A DNA stretch of 64,000 bases, taken from IMG/VR virus record IMGVR_UViG_3300023245_000013. One strand, written 5' to 3'. Made by a program: the position numbers and the translations under genes. Every line of letters starts with the position of its first letter. Positions within the stretch are counted from its first letter, which is position 1. The notes below the pieces were generated by a model. The model searched no databases, was not told the origin of the DNA, and was given only the letters and a program-made list of their open reading frames with translations. This DNA comes from a virus. This document shows positions 3,622 through 61,178 of the stretch, piece after piece.

Positions 3622-4404
3622 ATGAGTTTATACAAAAAGTTTCAAAAGCGCATAGAAGATGAAATGAACCATCATTCAGATGCGCATGCGCATGACATAA
3701 TTGGTGTGTGGGGCACATTCATGAAAATGATGGGTGAGGCCAATTTCAATAAGATGCTCTCCTGTTACATGAAACCAGAACCAGGGCACTGGGAAAACTC
3801 AGAAGACGCATTTCAAGGCTTCCACAAAGGATTGCGCCAAGGAGATATTTTTAGCTGTTTTGTACGAACTAAAGAAGTTCCAGTTCCAGATGTGGAAGGG
3901 AAAAAGAAAGGAAGAACAAGAGCAGTCATTGACGAGCATATTGACGGCCACATCGAAAGCTTAATTTGGACAATGATTCACTTGGACCAAAACGACTCAT
4001 TTCAAAAAACCTTTAGGCTCTACTGGGACCTGCATCAACAAGAAGTTCCAATAGTGGACTTTGTTTTTGAGAGAAAATCAGATAAAGATTGGGATGATAA
4101 CTTCAACGGGTTAGTTGGAGTTAGGATTGAAGGCCAGGAGGAATTCTTGAGCAAAAAGCAGTTCGACGAGCTGTTCCCTAAGCTAGACACCATCTCGCTC
4201 AAGATTGAGCATGGAATCAAAAAATACAAATGGAACACTGGTCAAGAGGTGAAGCCTAAAGATGCAACCAACTATGCTGCGTTTGACTACCCACTTTACG
4301 AAGGAAGCAGAGACATAGGAGACATTATCTCTTGGGAATCGACAACCAACACCCCATTTAAATTCATTCAAACTATTGTTCTCCCTAAACCTCAGAAAGC
4401 ATAA
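3622..4404 (+). CDS. hypothetical protein
   Basis: 260-aa ORF behind promoter motif. Confidence 0.65.
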   Translation: MSLYKKFQKRIEDEMNHHSDAHAHDIIGVWGTFMKMMGEANFNKMLSCYMKPEPGHWENSEDAFQGFHKGLRQGDIFSCFVRTKEVPVPDVEGKKKGRTRAVIDEHIDGHIESLIWTMIHLDQNDSFQKTFRLYWDLHQQEVPIVDFVFERKSDKDWDDNFNGLVGVRIEGQEEFLSKKQFDELFPKLDTISLKIEHGIKKYKWNTGQEVKPKDATNYAAFDYPLYEGSRDIGDIISWESTTNTPFKFIQTIVLPKPQKA

Positions 4405-4985: not shown

Positions 4986-5951
4986 GTGAATGAGCACTAT
5001 ATAAATATAATCATGGAAGAACAAGACTTAGCAGACCAATTAAAACCACAGTTGACGCCGTCTACCAAAGTGATAGACATTCCTTTACAAGTTTTTCTCA
5101 CAGAACACAATCTTCTTAATGATTTATTTTCGTTTGATGGAGGAATCGTTAAAGAGCAAGTGTATTTTGTAACTGGCTCCTCAGGGGCAGGCAAAACCAC
5201 ACTATTTACTCAACTACAATGTGAGCTTAAAAGCATGAAGTCCGCACAATATCAAAGAGAGTCTAGCGCAGGTAAAGTGCGCTCTCGTAATCAAAACATG
5301 GACTTCCATGCTAATGCTCATTTGGACGACGAGAGAAGCATTCCTACGCTTGTCTCTTTTTTGGAATTGACAAAAGAAAACAAAACAGAGTTCATCATTG
5401 TGGACTCACTTCAAACTGCTGCATCTGATATTCCAGGCGGAAAATTAGAGCGCGAAGTAGAGGCGGTTCGTATGCTTCTTAAATGGGCGAAAGAAACTGG
5501 GGGAACAGTGTTCGTTATTGGCATGGTAACCAAGGAAGAGGATTTTGCAGGTTCTCAAGAAGCAATGCAATTGGTTGATGCTCACTTGCACTTGACTTTC
5601 GATAAGAAAGCAAACGAACGCTACTTAGAATTCCAGCAAAAAAACCGAGATGGAGAGGTTTATAAGCGATTATACTACTCGTTCCGTGAAGACAGAAAAG
5701 GTGTCCAGTTTTGGTCACCCTCAGAATGGATGGTGCACAAACGAGGATATACTTTGGCTGATATGATTCAATCTGCAATGCAAGGCTACATTGATGCGTG
5801 GAGGAATCATGACAATTACGAGGATTTCAAGGCTGAAATGACTATTAGTCAAAACAAGCTAGTGAAAGAAGGGTTTGATAGCCAAGTTGAATACCAGTGT
5901 GGTTTGCTTATGATTTGTCAATCTTCAATGGAGACTCATTTTGGAATGTAA
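4986..5951 (+). CDS. RadA/Sms-like RecA-superfamily ATPase
   Basis: Walker A GSSGAGKTT, Walker B IIVDSLQT, GMVTKEEDFAGS and LVDAHLHL resemble the RadA/Sms ATPase core; no Zn finger or Lon-like domain. Confidence 0.7.
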   Translation: MNEHYINIIMEEQDLADQLKPQLTPSTKVIDIPLQVFLTEHNLLNDLFSFDGGIVKEQVYFVTGSSGAGKTTLFTQLQCELKSMKSAQYQRESSAGKVRSRNQNMDFHANAHLDDERSIPTLVSFLELTKENKTEFIIVDSLQTAASDIPGGKLEREVEAVRMLLKWAKETGGTVFVIGMVTKEEDFAGSQEAMQLVDAHLHLTFDKKANERYLEFQQKNRDGEVYKRLYYSFREDRKGVQFWSPSEWMVHKRGYTLADMIQSAMQGYIDAWRNHDNYEDFKAEMTISQNKLVKEGFDSQVEYQCGLLMICQSSMETHFGM

Positions 5952-17948: not shown

Positions 17949-18091
17949 CCTGGAGTAGCTCAGTTGGTTAGAGCACCACCCTGATAAATGAGGAAAAGGA
18001 TTGAAACGCAACCTGCGTGGCCACAAGGGTTGTGAAGTAGAGAATTGGAATCGAACGGTGGGGGTCGGGGGTTCGAGCCCTTCCTCCAGGA
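17949..18091 (+). tRNA. tRNA-Ile(GAU) with ~69-nt insertion at the 3' side of the anticodon loop
   Basis: CCTGGAG/CTCCAGG, D arm, CCACC-CTGATAA-[insert 17988-18056]-GGTGG, GGTTCGAGC T loop. Confidence 0.8.
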
Positions 18092-20221: not shown

Positions 20222-20425
20222 ATGGCTACTGTAGATAACACGAGATATTATATAGAATGGACTTCAAACTATACAGCTAAGCATCGCCCCAGGGTGGCTT
20301 GGACCAAATACTCTGGTCCATATTCCTCGTTACGAAGAGTTATGCAGGCTAAGAAAGATATTCTATCTTCACCGTATTGTGGAGACTGGCTGTATCGGAT
20401 AGCACATTACCACAAGGGGCGTTAG
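20222..20425 (+). CDS. hypothetical protein
   Basis: 67-aa ORF; stop overlaps the tRNA 5' end. Confidence 0.45.
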   Translation: MATVDNTRYYIEWTSNYTAKHRPRVAWTKYSGPYSSLRRVMQAKKDILSSPYCGDWLYRIAHYHKGR

Positions 20426-20487
20426 TTCAGAGGTAGAACATCAGGCTTTAACCCTGTACGTCAGGGGTTCGAACCCCCTACGCCCCT
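20416..20487 (+). tRNA. ochre suppressor tRNA (anticodon UUA)
   Basis: Canonical cloverleaf GGGGCGT/ACGCCCC, GTTC/GAAC D stem, TCAGG-CTTTAAC-CCTGT, AGGGG-TTCGAAC-CCCCT; anticodon TTA at 20448-20450. Confidence 0.85.
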
Positions 20488-20559
20488 CTTGAATTACAGA
20501 TAGAAAAAGGCCGCCCTTCGAACAGTTTTTATATTTGTAAAATTGATTACATTTGTAGA

Positions 20560-39147: not shown

Positions 39148-39972
39148 ATGCCTAGAAAAGAAAAGAAGTTTCATTACATCTACAAAACCACTAATACCCT
39201 AACGGGTAGATATTATATTGGGATGCATTCCACCGATGTAGTTGAAGATGGATACCTGGGTTCAGGTAAGCGTCTTCGACGTTCTGTCAATAAGCATGGA
39301 GCTGAATGTCACTCCAGAGAGATACTTGAGTTTTGCAATTCTCGAAAGGAGTTGATTGATAAGGAAAAAGAGGTCGTGACATTGGAGGAAATTGCTAAGA
39401 ATGACTGTATGAATCTAATGCCAGGAGGCAGAGGGGGATTTATCAGTGATGAGCATCAGAGGCATAGGTCTATTTGTGCTGCTAAAGCAGCTAAGAAAAA
39501 AGCAGATGAAAACCCGAAGTTTAAAAAGAAATGGGAGGAAGCTAGGTTAAAAGGATTAAAAAAAGCCTACAAAGAGGGAAGAATACCAAACATTCAAGAC
39601 CATTATGATTGGTCAGGAAAAGAGCATACACCTGAGACAATTAAAAAGTTGAGAATAGTAAAGAAAGGAAAAGGAATTGGTAAATCTAATTCTCAATTTA
39701 ATACTTGCTGGATTAATAATGGAGTTGATTCTAAAAAAGTTAACAAACAGACTATTGAAGATTTCTTTAGTCAAGGGTGGGTAAAAGGTAGAAAGATGAA
39801 AGATGGGTTTAAAAACAAATTTAAGCTCTCACAGGAAGAAGTTAATAAAAGAAAAAACCTCATGTCTCATATTGATTTTAATAAAAGAGGTTGGGTGAAA
39901 CAAGCTTGCGAAGCTTTGAATATGAAGCCTGGGGGAGTTAAAAGATTTGTAAACACATATATAAGAAATTAA
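39148..39972 (+). CDS. GIY-YIG homing endonuclease
   Basis: HYIYKTTN...RYYIGMHST...GYLGSG, NUMOD3-like GKEHTPETIKKL; inside the tRNA cluster. Confidence 0.85.
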   Translation: MPRKEKKFHYIYKTTNTLTGRYYIGMHSTDVVEDGYLGSGKRLRRSVNKHGAECHSREILEFCNSRKELIDKEKEVVTLEEIAKNDCMNLMPGGRGGFISDEHQRHRSICAAKAAKKKADENPKFKKKWEEARLKGLKKAYKEGRIPNIQDHYDWSGKEHTPETIKKLRIVKKGKGIGKSNSQFNTCWINNGVDSKKVNKQTIEDFFSQGWVKGRKMKDGFKNKFKLSQEEVNKRKNLMSHIDFNKRGWVKQACEALNMKPGGVKRFVNTYIRN

Positions 39973-40297: not shown

Positions 40298-40339
40298 TTA
40301 TTTGAAACAAAACCCAATTGAATGCGTATATTTGCTTAC

Positions 40340-41341
40340 ATGAGAAAACTAGCAACCATTCGGAGAATAGAATCACTACATCCTATTAAAAAAGCTGACC
40401 GTATCGAACTTGCAAAAGTTGGTGGTTGGAGGTCAGTGGTCAAAAAAGGAGAATTCAATGTTGGCGACATGGTAGTTTATTGTGAGATAGATTCTTTATT
40501 GCCTGTGAAAGAAGAATTTGAGTTTCTTCGAAAATCTTGTTTTAGAGAATTGCCATATGGAGTTTCGGGGTTCCGATTAAGAACAATGAAACTTCGAGGT
40601 CAAATATCACAAGGCCTCATACTTCCTTTGTCAGTTCTTTCTTCAGGAGATTTTAAAATTGGAGAAGATGTAACTGAGCAGTTACAGATAATCAAGTACG
40701 ACCCACCTATTCCAAAAGAAATGATGGAAAGTGCAATTGGAGTTTTTCCGTCGTTTATTAAAAAGACAGAAGAGGAAAGAATTCAAAACTTAGATTCGGA
40801 GATAGAGCTTTTAAAGGGGCGAACTTTTTTCGTAACTGAAAAACTTAATGGACTCTCGATGACAGTTTTTCATAACGCAAACGAATTTGGCGTTTGTGGA
40901 AGAAACTATCAATATAAAAAACTTGAAAGCAATGCTTTGTGGTCTTCGGCGATAGAAGAAGGGCTAGAAGAGAAATTAAAAGCTTACGGTAAAAATATTG
41001 CTATTCAAGGCGAGTTGGTTGGGCCTGGAATCAGCGATAATCCATATGAGCTTGTGACAAAAGAATACCGAGTTTATAACATATTCAACATTGATGAATA
41101 CGCATACCTCTCGAAAAAAGATTGTCAAGAATTAGCCACTCAAATGAGCCTAAAGTTAGTTCCACTTGTCTCAGCGTCTATGGCATTGCCTGAATCTGTA
41201 GATGCCATCCTAGAAATGGCTGATGGACCAAGCCAGTTAAATCCAGAGACTCAGAAAGAAGGAGATGTTTGGGTAAGCGGCGATGGACAAGATAGAGTCT
41301 CTTTTAAAGTTATTTCGAATCATTTTTTATTGGAGGAATGA
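40340..41341 (+). CDS. ATP-dependent RNA ligase, DRB0094/Rnl2-like family
   Basis: RKLATIRRI, ADRIELA, VYCEIDSLLP, LRGQISQGL, motif I TEKLNG, IQGELVG, KEG, SFKVIS. Confidence 0.9.
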   Translation: MRKLATIRRIESLHPIKKADRIELAKVGGWRSVVKKGEFNVGDMVVYCEIDSLLPVKEEFEFLRKSCFRELPYGVSGFRLRTMKLRGQISQGLILPLSVLSSGDFKIGEDVTEQLQIIKYDPPIPKEMMESAIGVFPSFIKKTEEERIQNLDSEIELLKGRTFFVTEKLNGLSMTVFHNANEFGVCGRNYQYKKLESNALWSSAIEEGLEEKLKAYGKNIAIQGELVGPGISDNPYELVTKEYRVYNIFNIDEYAYLSKKDCQELATQMSLKLVPLVSASMALPESVDAILEMADGPSQLNPETQKEGDVWVSGDGQDRVSFKVISNHFLLEE

Positions 41342-41360: not shown

Positions 41361-41432
41361 GGCCCCGTAGCTCAGTGGAAGAGCAATTCCCTTCTAAGGA
41401 ATCGGTCCCAGGTTCGAATCCTGGCGGGGTCA
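41361..41432 (+). tRNA. tRNA-Arg(UCU)
   Basis: ATTCC-CTTCTAA-GGAAT. Confidence 0.9.
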
Positions 41433-41608
41433 CTAAATGCAAGAATGGAGATTTATCTCCTGAGACGCCTAATGCTTTACACACCCTGGGTTCCTAGCCC
41501 AGGCAATGTGGTGCTAGTAAAGCTTCTTGTGTTTTTTAAAGACAGCAAATGAAACTTTTTTCGAAAAGCTCCGTATAATAGTAATATAAACAAAAACAAA
41601 TAACGCTT

Positions 41609-42019
41609 ATGAAATCTTACGCATCTATTATCATTGTATTTATTTCAATGTTTTTTCTGCCCTCTGCTTTTGCAGCAGAACCCGTCTATAACGACGAAGA
41701 ATCCATTGCCGTGTATGAACCCGTCGTTACAATCACTGCTCTAGGAGGAAATGAATATCAAGTTAAGATTGAGGTCTGGCTGCCAAAAAACACCACAGGA
41801 GGCGTTGTTTCTAATACTGTCAATGGTGACACACGCTCTATTGACATCGATATTGTTGGAGGAGTACCTATCAACGGGCCTCATCTTGAAACTTATAGTT
41901 TAGTTGTTACACGCCTTTCAGGGGAAAACGAAATACTTACAGAAGTTTTTGAGTTAACACAAGGTAAGCCTAAGAAGAAGAAAGGGCAGACTGTTGTGGT
42001 TTATTCAGGTGTAATTTAA
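41609..42019 (+). CDS. secreted hypothetical protein
   Basis: Signal peptide ending AFA; behind promoter motif at 41551. Confidence 0.6.
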   Translation: MKSYASIIIVFISMFFLPSAFAAEPVYNDEESIAVYEPVVTITALGGNEYQVKIEVWLPKNTTGGVVSNTVNGDTRSIDIDIVGGVPINGPHLETYSLVVTRLSGENEILTEVFELTQGKPKKKKGQTVVVYSGVI

Positions 42020-42020
42020 A

Positions 42021-42127
42021 AATACTTGGAATGTAGGCTTGGAAGCAGCCATCATCTAAAGAGTAGCGACGTGAGGTGTTAAAGGGACCATCTGAGAGCT
42101 TTTAGCGTAATAGCACACCGAGTATTT
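42021..42127 (+). ncRNA. 23S rRNA L11-binding domain (H42-H44) mimic with internal insertion
   Basis: ATGTAGGCTTGGAAGCAGCCATCATCTAAAGAG...AGCGTAATAGCACAC closed by AATACTTGG/CCGAGTATT; no flanking rRNA sequence. Confidence 0.8.
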
Positions 42128-42582
42128 TTGGTATTATTTTAACTGGCACTGAAAAGCCCATAACGGATGACAACTCCAAGGGTAGTTCCATCGAAAGATG
42201 GCGGTGTAGCGGGTGGAGATACAGTGACTCCGTAAAGAAATGGCACGATAGCTATGCGCCTCAGTTAAAGACCTTGTGTCGTCCTCTGCTCTGTTCCTCG
42301 GAACAGCAAGACGGTCCCGCTGGACAGAAGGCCTCTGATTCCAGCCGCTGACATTTAAGAAACGGGCCCTAATAAATATCCCCACAGGAGGCTAGTGTGT
42401 CGTCGCATGAATAGAAGTGGGTAGTGCCACAGAGATGGGTAGTTGATGCCGTATCACGAAATCAGACAGGAACGATTCCCTGACAACAAGCGTAGCTCTA
42501 ACCCTATTGTGGGGACATCTTAAAAGCAAGGCTCCTTCGGGAATGTGGAAGCATAAGTTCTTGTATTTGTTGGGTGAGATTT

Positions 42583-42666
42583 GGCCAGGTGGCAGAATGG
42601 ATATTGCGCCAACCTCCTAAGTTGGTGTCCGAAAGGCACTTGTGGGTTCGAATCCCTCCTTGGTCA
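42583..42666 (+). tRNA. tRNA-Arg(CCU) with long variable arm
   Basis: CCAAC-CTCCTAA-GTTGG, variable region TGTCCGAAAGGCACT. Confidence 0.8.
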
Positions 42667-42686
42667 CAAAAATTTTACCGTTTTGA

Positions 42687-61104: not shown

Positions 61105-61178
61105 GGTGGCGCATCATATTGGCGCATGTTGCCTCCCTGTCACGGAGGAGATTGAGGATTCGAATTCCTTCGTCACCG
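61105..61178 (+). tRNA. tRNA-Asp(GUC) copy 1
   Basis: CCTCC-CTGTCAC-GGAGG. Confidence 0.8.

Follow-up and report, generated by a model that had tools for sequence, protein, structure and literature searches.

Phages encode, often beside their tRNA genes, a non-coding RNA that folds like the uL11-binding part of 23S rRNA. The example from which this analysis starts is 112 nt long (positions 42018-42129, + strand, of the 64-kb stretch of DNA analysed here, hereafter the window) and mirrors 23S rRNA positions 1055-1104, that is, helices H43 and H44 and the end of H42 in the GTPase-associated centre (GAC), with its own 12-bp helix sealing the ends. It mimics the GAC in sequence and in structure, is under selection for its fold, lies in a tRNA array, and belongs to a family of more than 150 distinct stand-alone copies that pattern scans located in viral contigs, metagenome-assembled genomes (MAGs) and five cultured phages. 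We could not find this large family of phage RNAs described before, and define it here as the split-GAC RNA family. The window belongs to a 141-kb virus record in IMG/VR, from a salt-lake phage and 64% complete by CheckV, and the record region carries at least 15 tRNA genes.

The closing helix pairs 42018-42029 with 42118-42129 (12 bp including one G-U, read from the sequence). An earlier note on this DNA, made from the letters alone, had recognised a closing helix of 9 bp; the helix is real and longer. Its 5' strand (42018-42029) replaces the end of H42, with G42029 equivalent to G1055, and its first two bases are also the last two bases of the stop codon of the ORF at 41609-42019. On the same (+) strand there follow, by alignment to E. 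coli 23S rRNA, the H43 equivalent (1056-1081, at 42030-42055), with the 1067 loop at 42039-42047 and position 1067 occupied by G42041; the junction 1082-1086 (CUAAA, 42056-42060), whose 1082-1086 pair is C/A; and GAGU (1087-1090, 42061-42064), the 5' strand of H44 as far as an insertion point. Here a hairpin of 36 nt closed by AGC/GCU and of lineage-specific sequence is inserted (42065-42100), followed by the linker UUUA (42101-42104), the H44 hairpin 1091-1102 (GCGUAAUAGCAC, 42105-42116, with A1095 at 42109), which has A at 1101 where rRNA has U, and A1103 with the 3' strand of the closing helix (42117-42129), complementary to 42018-42029. An insert of about 40 nt had previously been placed before H44; it exists, and sits inside the 5' strand of H44, between 1090 and 1091. 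The TAGCG direct repeat reported around it is in the letters and is incidental: AGC opens the basal helix of the insert, and the linker in this copy runs UUUA-GCG. Since the repeat is missing from most relatives, it is not a target-site duplication.

Once insert and linker (40 nt together) are left out, 46 of 58 aligned positions are identical to E. coli 23S 1051-1108, an identity far beyond chance. The mismatches fall mostly in the closing helix, and 40 of 46 positions are identical within 1057-1102 (counted from the E. coli alignment). A 35-nt core consensus finds its best match in the window with 4 mismatches, against 12-14 in shuffled windows. These counts bear out the GAC-like sequence first noticed at the locus, and BLAST against 5,426 E. 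coli genomes matched 23S rRNA only. The window thus carries H43, H44 and the closing end of H42 in both sequence and secondary structure. The contacts that we take to define the tertiary fold (U1060/A1088, G1071/C1072 and 1082-1086, known from crystal structures and in part from PMC6239185) can also be followed: U1060/A1088 and G1071/C1072 with 1091-1100 and 1092-1099 are present, and 1082-1086 is C/A. A single-sequence minimum free energy fold of the element has a z-score of 0.10, which is no counter-evidence because single-sequence folding is blind to structure stabilised by tertiary contacts.

As the earlier note had also observed, no other rRNA is adjacent: a scan of the whole 64-kb window with Rfam at gathering scores returned tRNAs only, and rRNA was likewise absent from the region of the 141-kb record that was searched. 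Since no LSU rRNA gene surrounds the module, it is a mimic of the GAC and not a member. It shares with the bacterial GAC (H42-H44, E. coli 1051-1108, the 58-60-nt domain that binds uL11 and thiostrepton) its secondary structure, a near-identical core sequence, the nucleotides of the tertiary contacts and the covarying pairs, 1082-1086 included. Unlike the GAC, the phage RNA stands outside rRNA, has an arbitrary closing helix, lies among the tRNA genes of phages, always carries a helix between 1090 and 1091 followed by a UUUR linker, has A or G at 1101, and is relaxed at loop positions 1067-1070 and 1096-1097. The local match to an LSU rRNA model that had been predicted for the window did not appear at E ≤ 10 in Rfam. 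It does occur weakly for the module of Pseudomonas phage pf16 (LSU_rRNA_archaea 1180-1233, 25.3 bits, E = 5.7e-4, sub-threshold in Rfam 15), and it holds in reverse, as a covariance model of the phage family gives the genuine E. coli 23S GAC 47-48 bits. That model (R1, 172 positions) was built from 30 other phages with the window excluded; on the window it scores 100.9 bits (E = 5.5e-28) over its full length (model positions 1-172 of 172, match spanning 42018-42130), and it finds one copy in the 141-kb record.

The extent of the family was gauged with patterns anchored on either side of the insert. The first, 21 nt on the H43 side, occurs at 34 places in IMG/VR viral contigs, one of which is a true 23S gene. 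The other 33 matches (21 distinct sequences) all have the H44 hairpin GCGUANNAGCAC 84-310 nt downstream, and each has its own closing helix. UUUR is conserved in 33 of these 33 copies, which were found by a 5'-anchored pattern that does not specify it, and GCGUA..AGCAC recurs in every one with variation at 1096 and 1097. An H44-side pattern, unbiased for H43, matched at least 119 IMG/VR loci with 119 distinct sequences, 99 of which depart from the 35-nt H43-side consensus at no more than 9 positions. Applied to one genome per prokaryote species, the H44-side pattern gave 112 matches, about 47 of them real modules and the remainder chance. These modules are mostly in MAG contigs of Bacteroidota, Clostridia, Proteobacteria, Chloroflexota, Actinomycetota and others, and the module in an isolate genome lies on a 196-kb contig of Flintibacter muris DSM 110149. 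BLAST together with the covariance model identified cultured carriers: Pseudomonas phages pf16 and UNO-G1W1, Aeromonas phage 4_4572, and Xanthomonas phages XacN1 and XaC1. All five of their modules are full members of the family and are unannotated in those genomes. Carrier phages come from bacteria of the gut, the rumen, soil, lakes, the sea and salt lakes.

Members are built alike, in this order: a closing helix whose sequence is free, a core corresponding to 1056-1090 and ending in GAGU, a helix-closed insert, UUUR, G1091-C1102, and A1103 with the 3' strand of the closing helix. The insert between 1090 and 1091 is 22-365 nt long and has its own basal helix. Position 1101 is A in the family, and G in pf16 and UNO-G1W1. 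The window carries this signature throughout (GAGU, helix-closed insert and UUUR, A at 1101, its own closing helix) and is among the most compact members, with minority states for the family at two positions, G at 1067 and C/A at 1082-1086. A pattern search found no relative with the same insert sequence. In nine among the 119 matches listed, a second helix interrupts the 3' strand of H43 after A1077 (L081, L045, L108, L112 and L109, also L136, L144, L068 and L145). A MAG contig of Candidatus Limenecus (L187) has two GAC-core matches about 1.2 kb apart (~4002-4040 and 5212-5248), possibly a phage with two modules. On the minus strand of the UNO-G1W1 record (L275, 1572-1679), a 'hypothetical protein' (XAI98144.1) is annotated inside the module on the opposite strand and is probably a spurious gene call.

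The fold is maintained across the family by compensatory change. From 30 members without the window, RNAalifold recovered the closing helix, H43, the basal helix of the insert and the top of H44 unaided, with 14 of 21 pairs changing on both sides. Across 100 distinct sequences, standard pairs occupy 92.4% of pair cells, against 67.7% after shuffling (0 of 500 shuffles reach 92.4%), double changes occur in 17 of 21 pairs, and covariation scores 0.584, where sliding the partners gives no more than 0.13. The 100-sequence alignment was fitted to the model and so leans towards structure; the hand-free RNAalifold prediction on 30 sequences agrees with it. Every pair of the closing helix covaries in relatives (8/8), as does every pair of the insert basal helix across 100 members (4/4), and within H43 the family covaries at 1057-1081, 1058-1080, 1062-1076 and 1064-1074. 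Base counts per position, which refer to the 99 H43-matching members among the at least 119 loci listed, make the exchanges visible: 1058-1080 is U-A in 52, G-C in 22, A-U in 15 and C-G in 4; 1057-1081 is A-U in 89 and C-G in 8; and 1064-1074 is C-G in 93 and A-U in 5. The tertiary pair 1082-1086 is U-A in 57, C-G in 26, A-U in 10, and C/A in 4 members, the window included. The earlier note had read the element as a self-contained copy of the GAC domain that binds uL11, set in a tRNA region of a phage, and had suggested a search for covarying homologues in related phages. Many were found, with compensatory pairs where drift without them would have spoken against the idea, and they support both the mimicry and its selection.

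Might the modules simply be functionless scraps of host rRNA, or assembly contaminants? Real rRNA pieces do occur in phage records. That of Paenibacillus phage Pd_22F (L273, MZ092003) contains, at 1988-2060, a true 23S GAC with AGCUCAC and no insert, within a 1.7-kb unannotated stretch; either some host DNA entered the assembly there or a piece of rRNA was captured. For the family as a whole we give this explanation hardly any probability, and the covariation data already contradict it: the modules have their own covarying closing helix and a family signature, purifying selection acts on the fold across more than 150 distinct copies, and the window DNA itself recurs in 20 salt-lake metagenome runs, all of them DNA. 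In Flintibacter muris, the one case in which a module was compared with the 23S rRNA of the isolate assembly containing it, the module differs at 1056, 1078-1086 and 1101 from the GAC in another part of that assembly and is therefore no fresh copy of host rRNA, if the isolate is the host. The same comparison, together with a family signature that persists whatever the host, gives no support to the earlier picture of a freshly excised rRNA piece with a transposon-like insert.

Which nucleotides are kept bears on what the RNA might do. G1059, U1060, G1063, G1071, C1072, C1075, A1077, A1084, A1085, G1087 and A1088 are retained in at least 97 of 99 members, and the four positions of GAGU are matched in 98 (G), 97 (A), 97 (G) and 99 (U). 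Variation is concentrated at 1061, 1067 (A 82, G 15), 1068 (G 74, A 24), 1070 (A 85, G 14), 1078, 1096 and 1097. The family thus retains the nucleotides on which the fold depends and relaxes some that matter to a working ribosome alone.

Genomic context is the second recurrent feature. A tRNA gene lies within 1 kb of 90 of the 151 distinct modules and within 60 nt of 63, and all 133 nearest tRNAs at up to 1 kb share the strand of their module. In pf16 the module occupies the gap between tRNA-Asn and tRNA-Pro, and in UNO-G1W1 that between tRNA-Trp and tRNA-Arg. The window module is likewise at a phage locus and co-oriented with tRNA genes; its nearest tRNAs are tRNA-Arg(CCU) downstream (42583-42667, +) and tRNA-Arg(UCU) upstream (41361-41433, +), at distances of 455 and 585 nt, so that it abuts none, unlike the 63 members above. 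In L008 and L011, tmRNAs lie beside the modules. No conserved protein neighbour was found, the largest cluster being present at 9 of 150 loci. In the window, a GIY-YIG SegE-like homing endonuclease (39148-39972) and an RNA ligase with OB-fold and RNA_ligase domains (40322-41341) are encoded between tRNA genes just upstream of the module; in XacN1 the module follows a 2'-5' RNA ligase. Relatives of the window ligase were found at 12 loci (39-59% identity), none with a module within 4 kb, and a megablast of 3 kb from the window against INPHARED phages gave no match. The close, co-oriented linkage to tRNAs is what might be expected of a processing or punctuation element of tRNA operons, or of a cis-regulatory leader through which a ribosomal protein controls a neighbouring gene. 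We consider such a role very improbable: no protein family recurs next to the module, 61 of the 151 copies have no tRNA within 1 kb, and punctuation does not require the exact tertiary fold of the GAC.

So, what might the RNA do? Judged from sequence, the pattern of conservation favours uL11 and the fold as the target over translational GTPases or ligands of the thiostrepton site, as the fold-defining nucleotides are kept and the factor-contact loops drift. The GAC is a small autonomous fold, and binding by uL11 needs that tertiary fold (PMC6239185); the yeast GAC, too, can assemble with bacterial L11 (PMC2175356). We think it probable that an RNA with these nucleotides kept would bind host uL11. 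That the window RNA acts off the ribosome as a uL11 decoy is a full explanation that we regard as plausible, if just short of probable. A uL11 gene is absent from all of the 50 viral records with a module that were examined, 23 of which are at least 90% complete, and from the record of the window, so any uL11 partner must be the host protein.

Such a decoy could work as follows. The module would be co-transcribed with the neighbouring tRNAs and freed by tRNA-processing nucleases; the gap-filling position in pf16 and UNO-G1W1 suggests release by RNase P and the enzymes that process tRNA 3' ends. Once free, the RNA would adopt the tertiary structure of the 23S GAC, with a stub helix jutting from the 5' strand of H44, and this cytoplasmic GAC fold would be caught by host uL11 through the C-terminal domain that recognises the autonomous fold. 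It might then serve as a sponge that draws uL11 from host ribosomes, or as the source of an off-ribosome uL11-RNA complex. Steps that depend on uL11 (RelA activation, RF1-dependent termination, factor turnover) would be altered during infection. RelA activation depends on uL11. The protein is non-essential in E. coli, so the gain from titrating it is not obvious, and the obligatory helix between 1090 and 1091, or the second helix after A1077, could lie in the uL11 interface. The minority states of the window at 1067 and 1082-1086 likewise count against the decoy reading. A bolder version, which we consider fairly unlikely, holds that large phages of many phyla make an abundant copy of the uL11 domain, processed like a tRNA, that pulls or keeps exchangeable uL11 off host ribosomes. 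Were uL11 pulled from ribosomes in this way, RelA-dependent stringent signalling would be silenced and RF1-dependent termination weakened, which would be a novel means of viral reprogramming of translation. The idea about termination is tied to the contact of RF1 domain 1 with the N-terminal domain of uL11 (PMC3677378) and to amber-suppressor tRNAs at 12 of the 103 tRNA-bearing module loci (a raw count).

Decoys can also protect. The module might divert an enzyme, toxin or small molecule that attacks the host GAC in the course of infection or when bacteria compete, such as an ADP-ribosyltransferase, nuclease, methyltransferase or thiopeptide, and so shield ribosomes that the phage needs. A precedent for such an attacker is the bacterial toxin Tre23, which ADP-ribosylates the H44 loop of 23S rRNA at 1095-1098 (PMC8661411). 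In the phage family U1094, A1095 and A1098 are constant, and neighbours concerned with RNA repair and tRNA (the RNA ligase at 40322-41341 in the window, the 2'-5' ligase of XacN1) fit a programme of protecting translation. However, 1096 and 1097, which lie within the stretch targeted by Tre23, vary freely, as do 1067-1070; the literature searched describes no defence system directed at the GAC; and carriage by phages of very different hosts would call for a widespread attacker. We regard this protective role as unlikely.

EF-G, EF-Tu, RF3 and RelA naturally contact the ribosome at the GAC. A free-standing platform of the RNA and uL11, perhaps with the uL10-bL12 stalk, could bind or activate translational GTPases or RelA off the ribosome, and factor and RF1 contacts with this part of the ribosome are described in PMC8661411 and PMC3677378. 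Motifs resembling the sarcin-ricin loop in a few large inserts (those of L069 and L095) would suit this role and are confined to 2 of 114 inserts. The factor-contact nucleotides of the loops are the least conserved part of the core, and the closing helix has no conserved sequence able to hold uL10. A platform of this kind seems to us quite improbable.

The inserts themselves have to be weighed as candidates for the working part. In the compact members, the window among them, they are plain hairpins of 22-45 nt that share no sequence, so a function common to the family must sit in the GAC core. No motif above the basal helix common to all inserts was found. One subfamily has a CACCCC-hairpin-GGUAAGG motif, present in 23 of 99 members and starting 18 nt before the end of the insert (17-21 nt in six). 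Examples are L025, L138, L057 and L005, and the same motif appears in the alignments of pf16 (L271) and UNO-G1W1 (L275); its small hairpin has 3 bp and a GAAA or UAAC loop, and the middle pair covaries (G-C, A-U, U-A, G-U). The sarcin-ricin-loop-like motifs, UGUACGAGAGGAUC and AGUACGGGAGGAA, are in the ~310-nt inserts of L069 and L095. The sarcin-ricin loop was considered as a general part of the insert and rejected at 2 of 114 inserts, and the insert of the window has none. Inserts of up to 365 nt with subfamily motifs, such as the CACCCC motif and the two sarcin-ricin-like examples, would accord with a GAC fold that is a rigid, nuclease-resistant chassis, possibly stabilised by uL11, for inserts that do different jobs in different lineages. 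We find this distinctly unlikely, in view of the sequence-diverse short hairpins of the compact members and the lack of a motif common to all inserts; moreover, tertiary-contact nucleotides that stay nearly identical to rRNA from host to host would be superfluous in a mere chassis.

Several known systems invite comparison. In the rRNA-mimicking leaders of ribosomal protein mRNAs (the L10 leader, RF00557, and the L1 site of the L11 operon mRNA), an off-ribosome RNA likewise imitates the site of a ribosomal protein. Those leaders act in cis, lie upstream of the ribosomal protein genes that they regulate and copy a small part of the site, whereas the phage module copies the whole domain and has no uL11 gene, other ribosomal protein gene or conserved gene adjacent; the Rfam leader families do not match it. 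Other RNAs of phage tRNA regions include tmRNAs, GOLLD, ROOL and the stable 'species 1 and 2' RNAs of the T4 tRNA cluster. The module shares their setting, co-oriented with the tRNA genes of large phages, but has no kinship with them in sequence or structure, and their Rfam models match neither the window module nor the five cultured-phage loci. Among RNAs that titrate proteins are 6S RNA, a decoy for RNA polymerase, and CsrB/RsmZ, decoys for CsrA. The proposed logic is alike, an abundant RNA imitating the natural nucleic-acid ligand of a protein, with a different protein, a different fold and a viral origin in the present case, where decoy action is inferred. Rfam 15 has no family for the module and gives no match at the window locus at E ≤ 10; at the five cultured-phage loci it reports tRNAs and the sub-threshold LSU fragment of pf16 only. 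We found no published description of such a phage RNA in the literature. New here are the list of relaxed and kept positions, the second insertion site after A1077, the lack of a linked protein or a phage uL11, the Flintibacter comparison with its own GAC, the Tre23 precedent and the five cultured carriers.

If the proposal is right, phages manipulate the ribosome with an imitation of one of its RNA domains, besides supplying tRNAs or proteins, and the modules would represent an unrecognised class of viral non-coding RNA. They would explain hundreds of unannotated gaps in phage tRNA arrays and offer a natural tool to titrate uL11 or to probe the GAC in vivo. With five cultured phage-host pairs, the idea is directly testable.

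No RNA run was found to contain the window sequence, and the data that bear on expression, which are ambiguous, concern the rumen relative L008. Its upstream tRNAs and the 5' half of its module are matched by metatranscriptome contigs (X24, 464 nt long), for which carry-over of DNA is possible. Deep contigs over the core continue into host 23S rRNA and leave the insert uncovered; they are ambiguous because the conserved core attracts contigs of host 23S.

A few features of the surrounding DNA are recorded here. Between the module and tRNA-Arg(CCU), 452 nt (42131-42582) have no ORF on the gene strand and a GC content of 48.5%, against 39% for the window. This stretch has no Rfam match at E ≤ 10, and was rejected as a part of the module RNA given no similarity to any other locus fetched and a z-score of +0.95 for its fold. 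A second RNA, specific to this lineage, or a decayed gene may lie here. Suppressor-type tRNAs occur at 14 of the 103 tRNA-bearing module loci, 12 of them with anticodon CUA, as raw counts for which no enrichment is claimed. A tRNA with anticodon UUA in the window (20416-20488) would read the stop codon UAA. Wholesale recoding nevertheless seems unlikely, with TAA the commonest stop among the long ORFs of the + strand (40 of 66) and ORFs in the standard code apparently intact. Finally, Rfam recovers tRNA matches that ARAGORN missed at 61105-61178 and at 17949-18091, and the 143-nt length of the latter suggests a tRNA gene with a long insertion or an intron.
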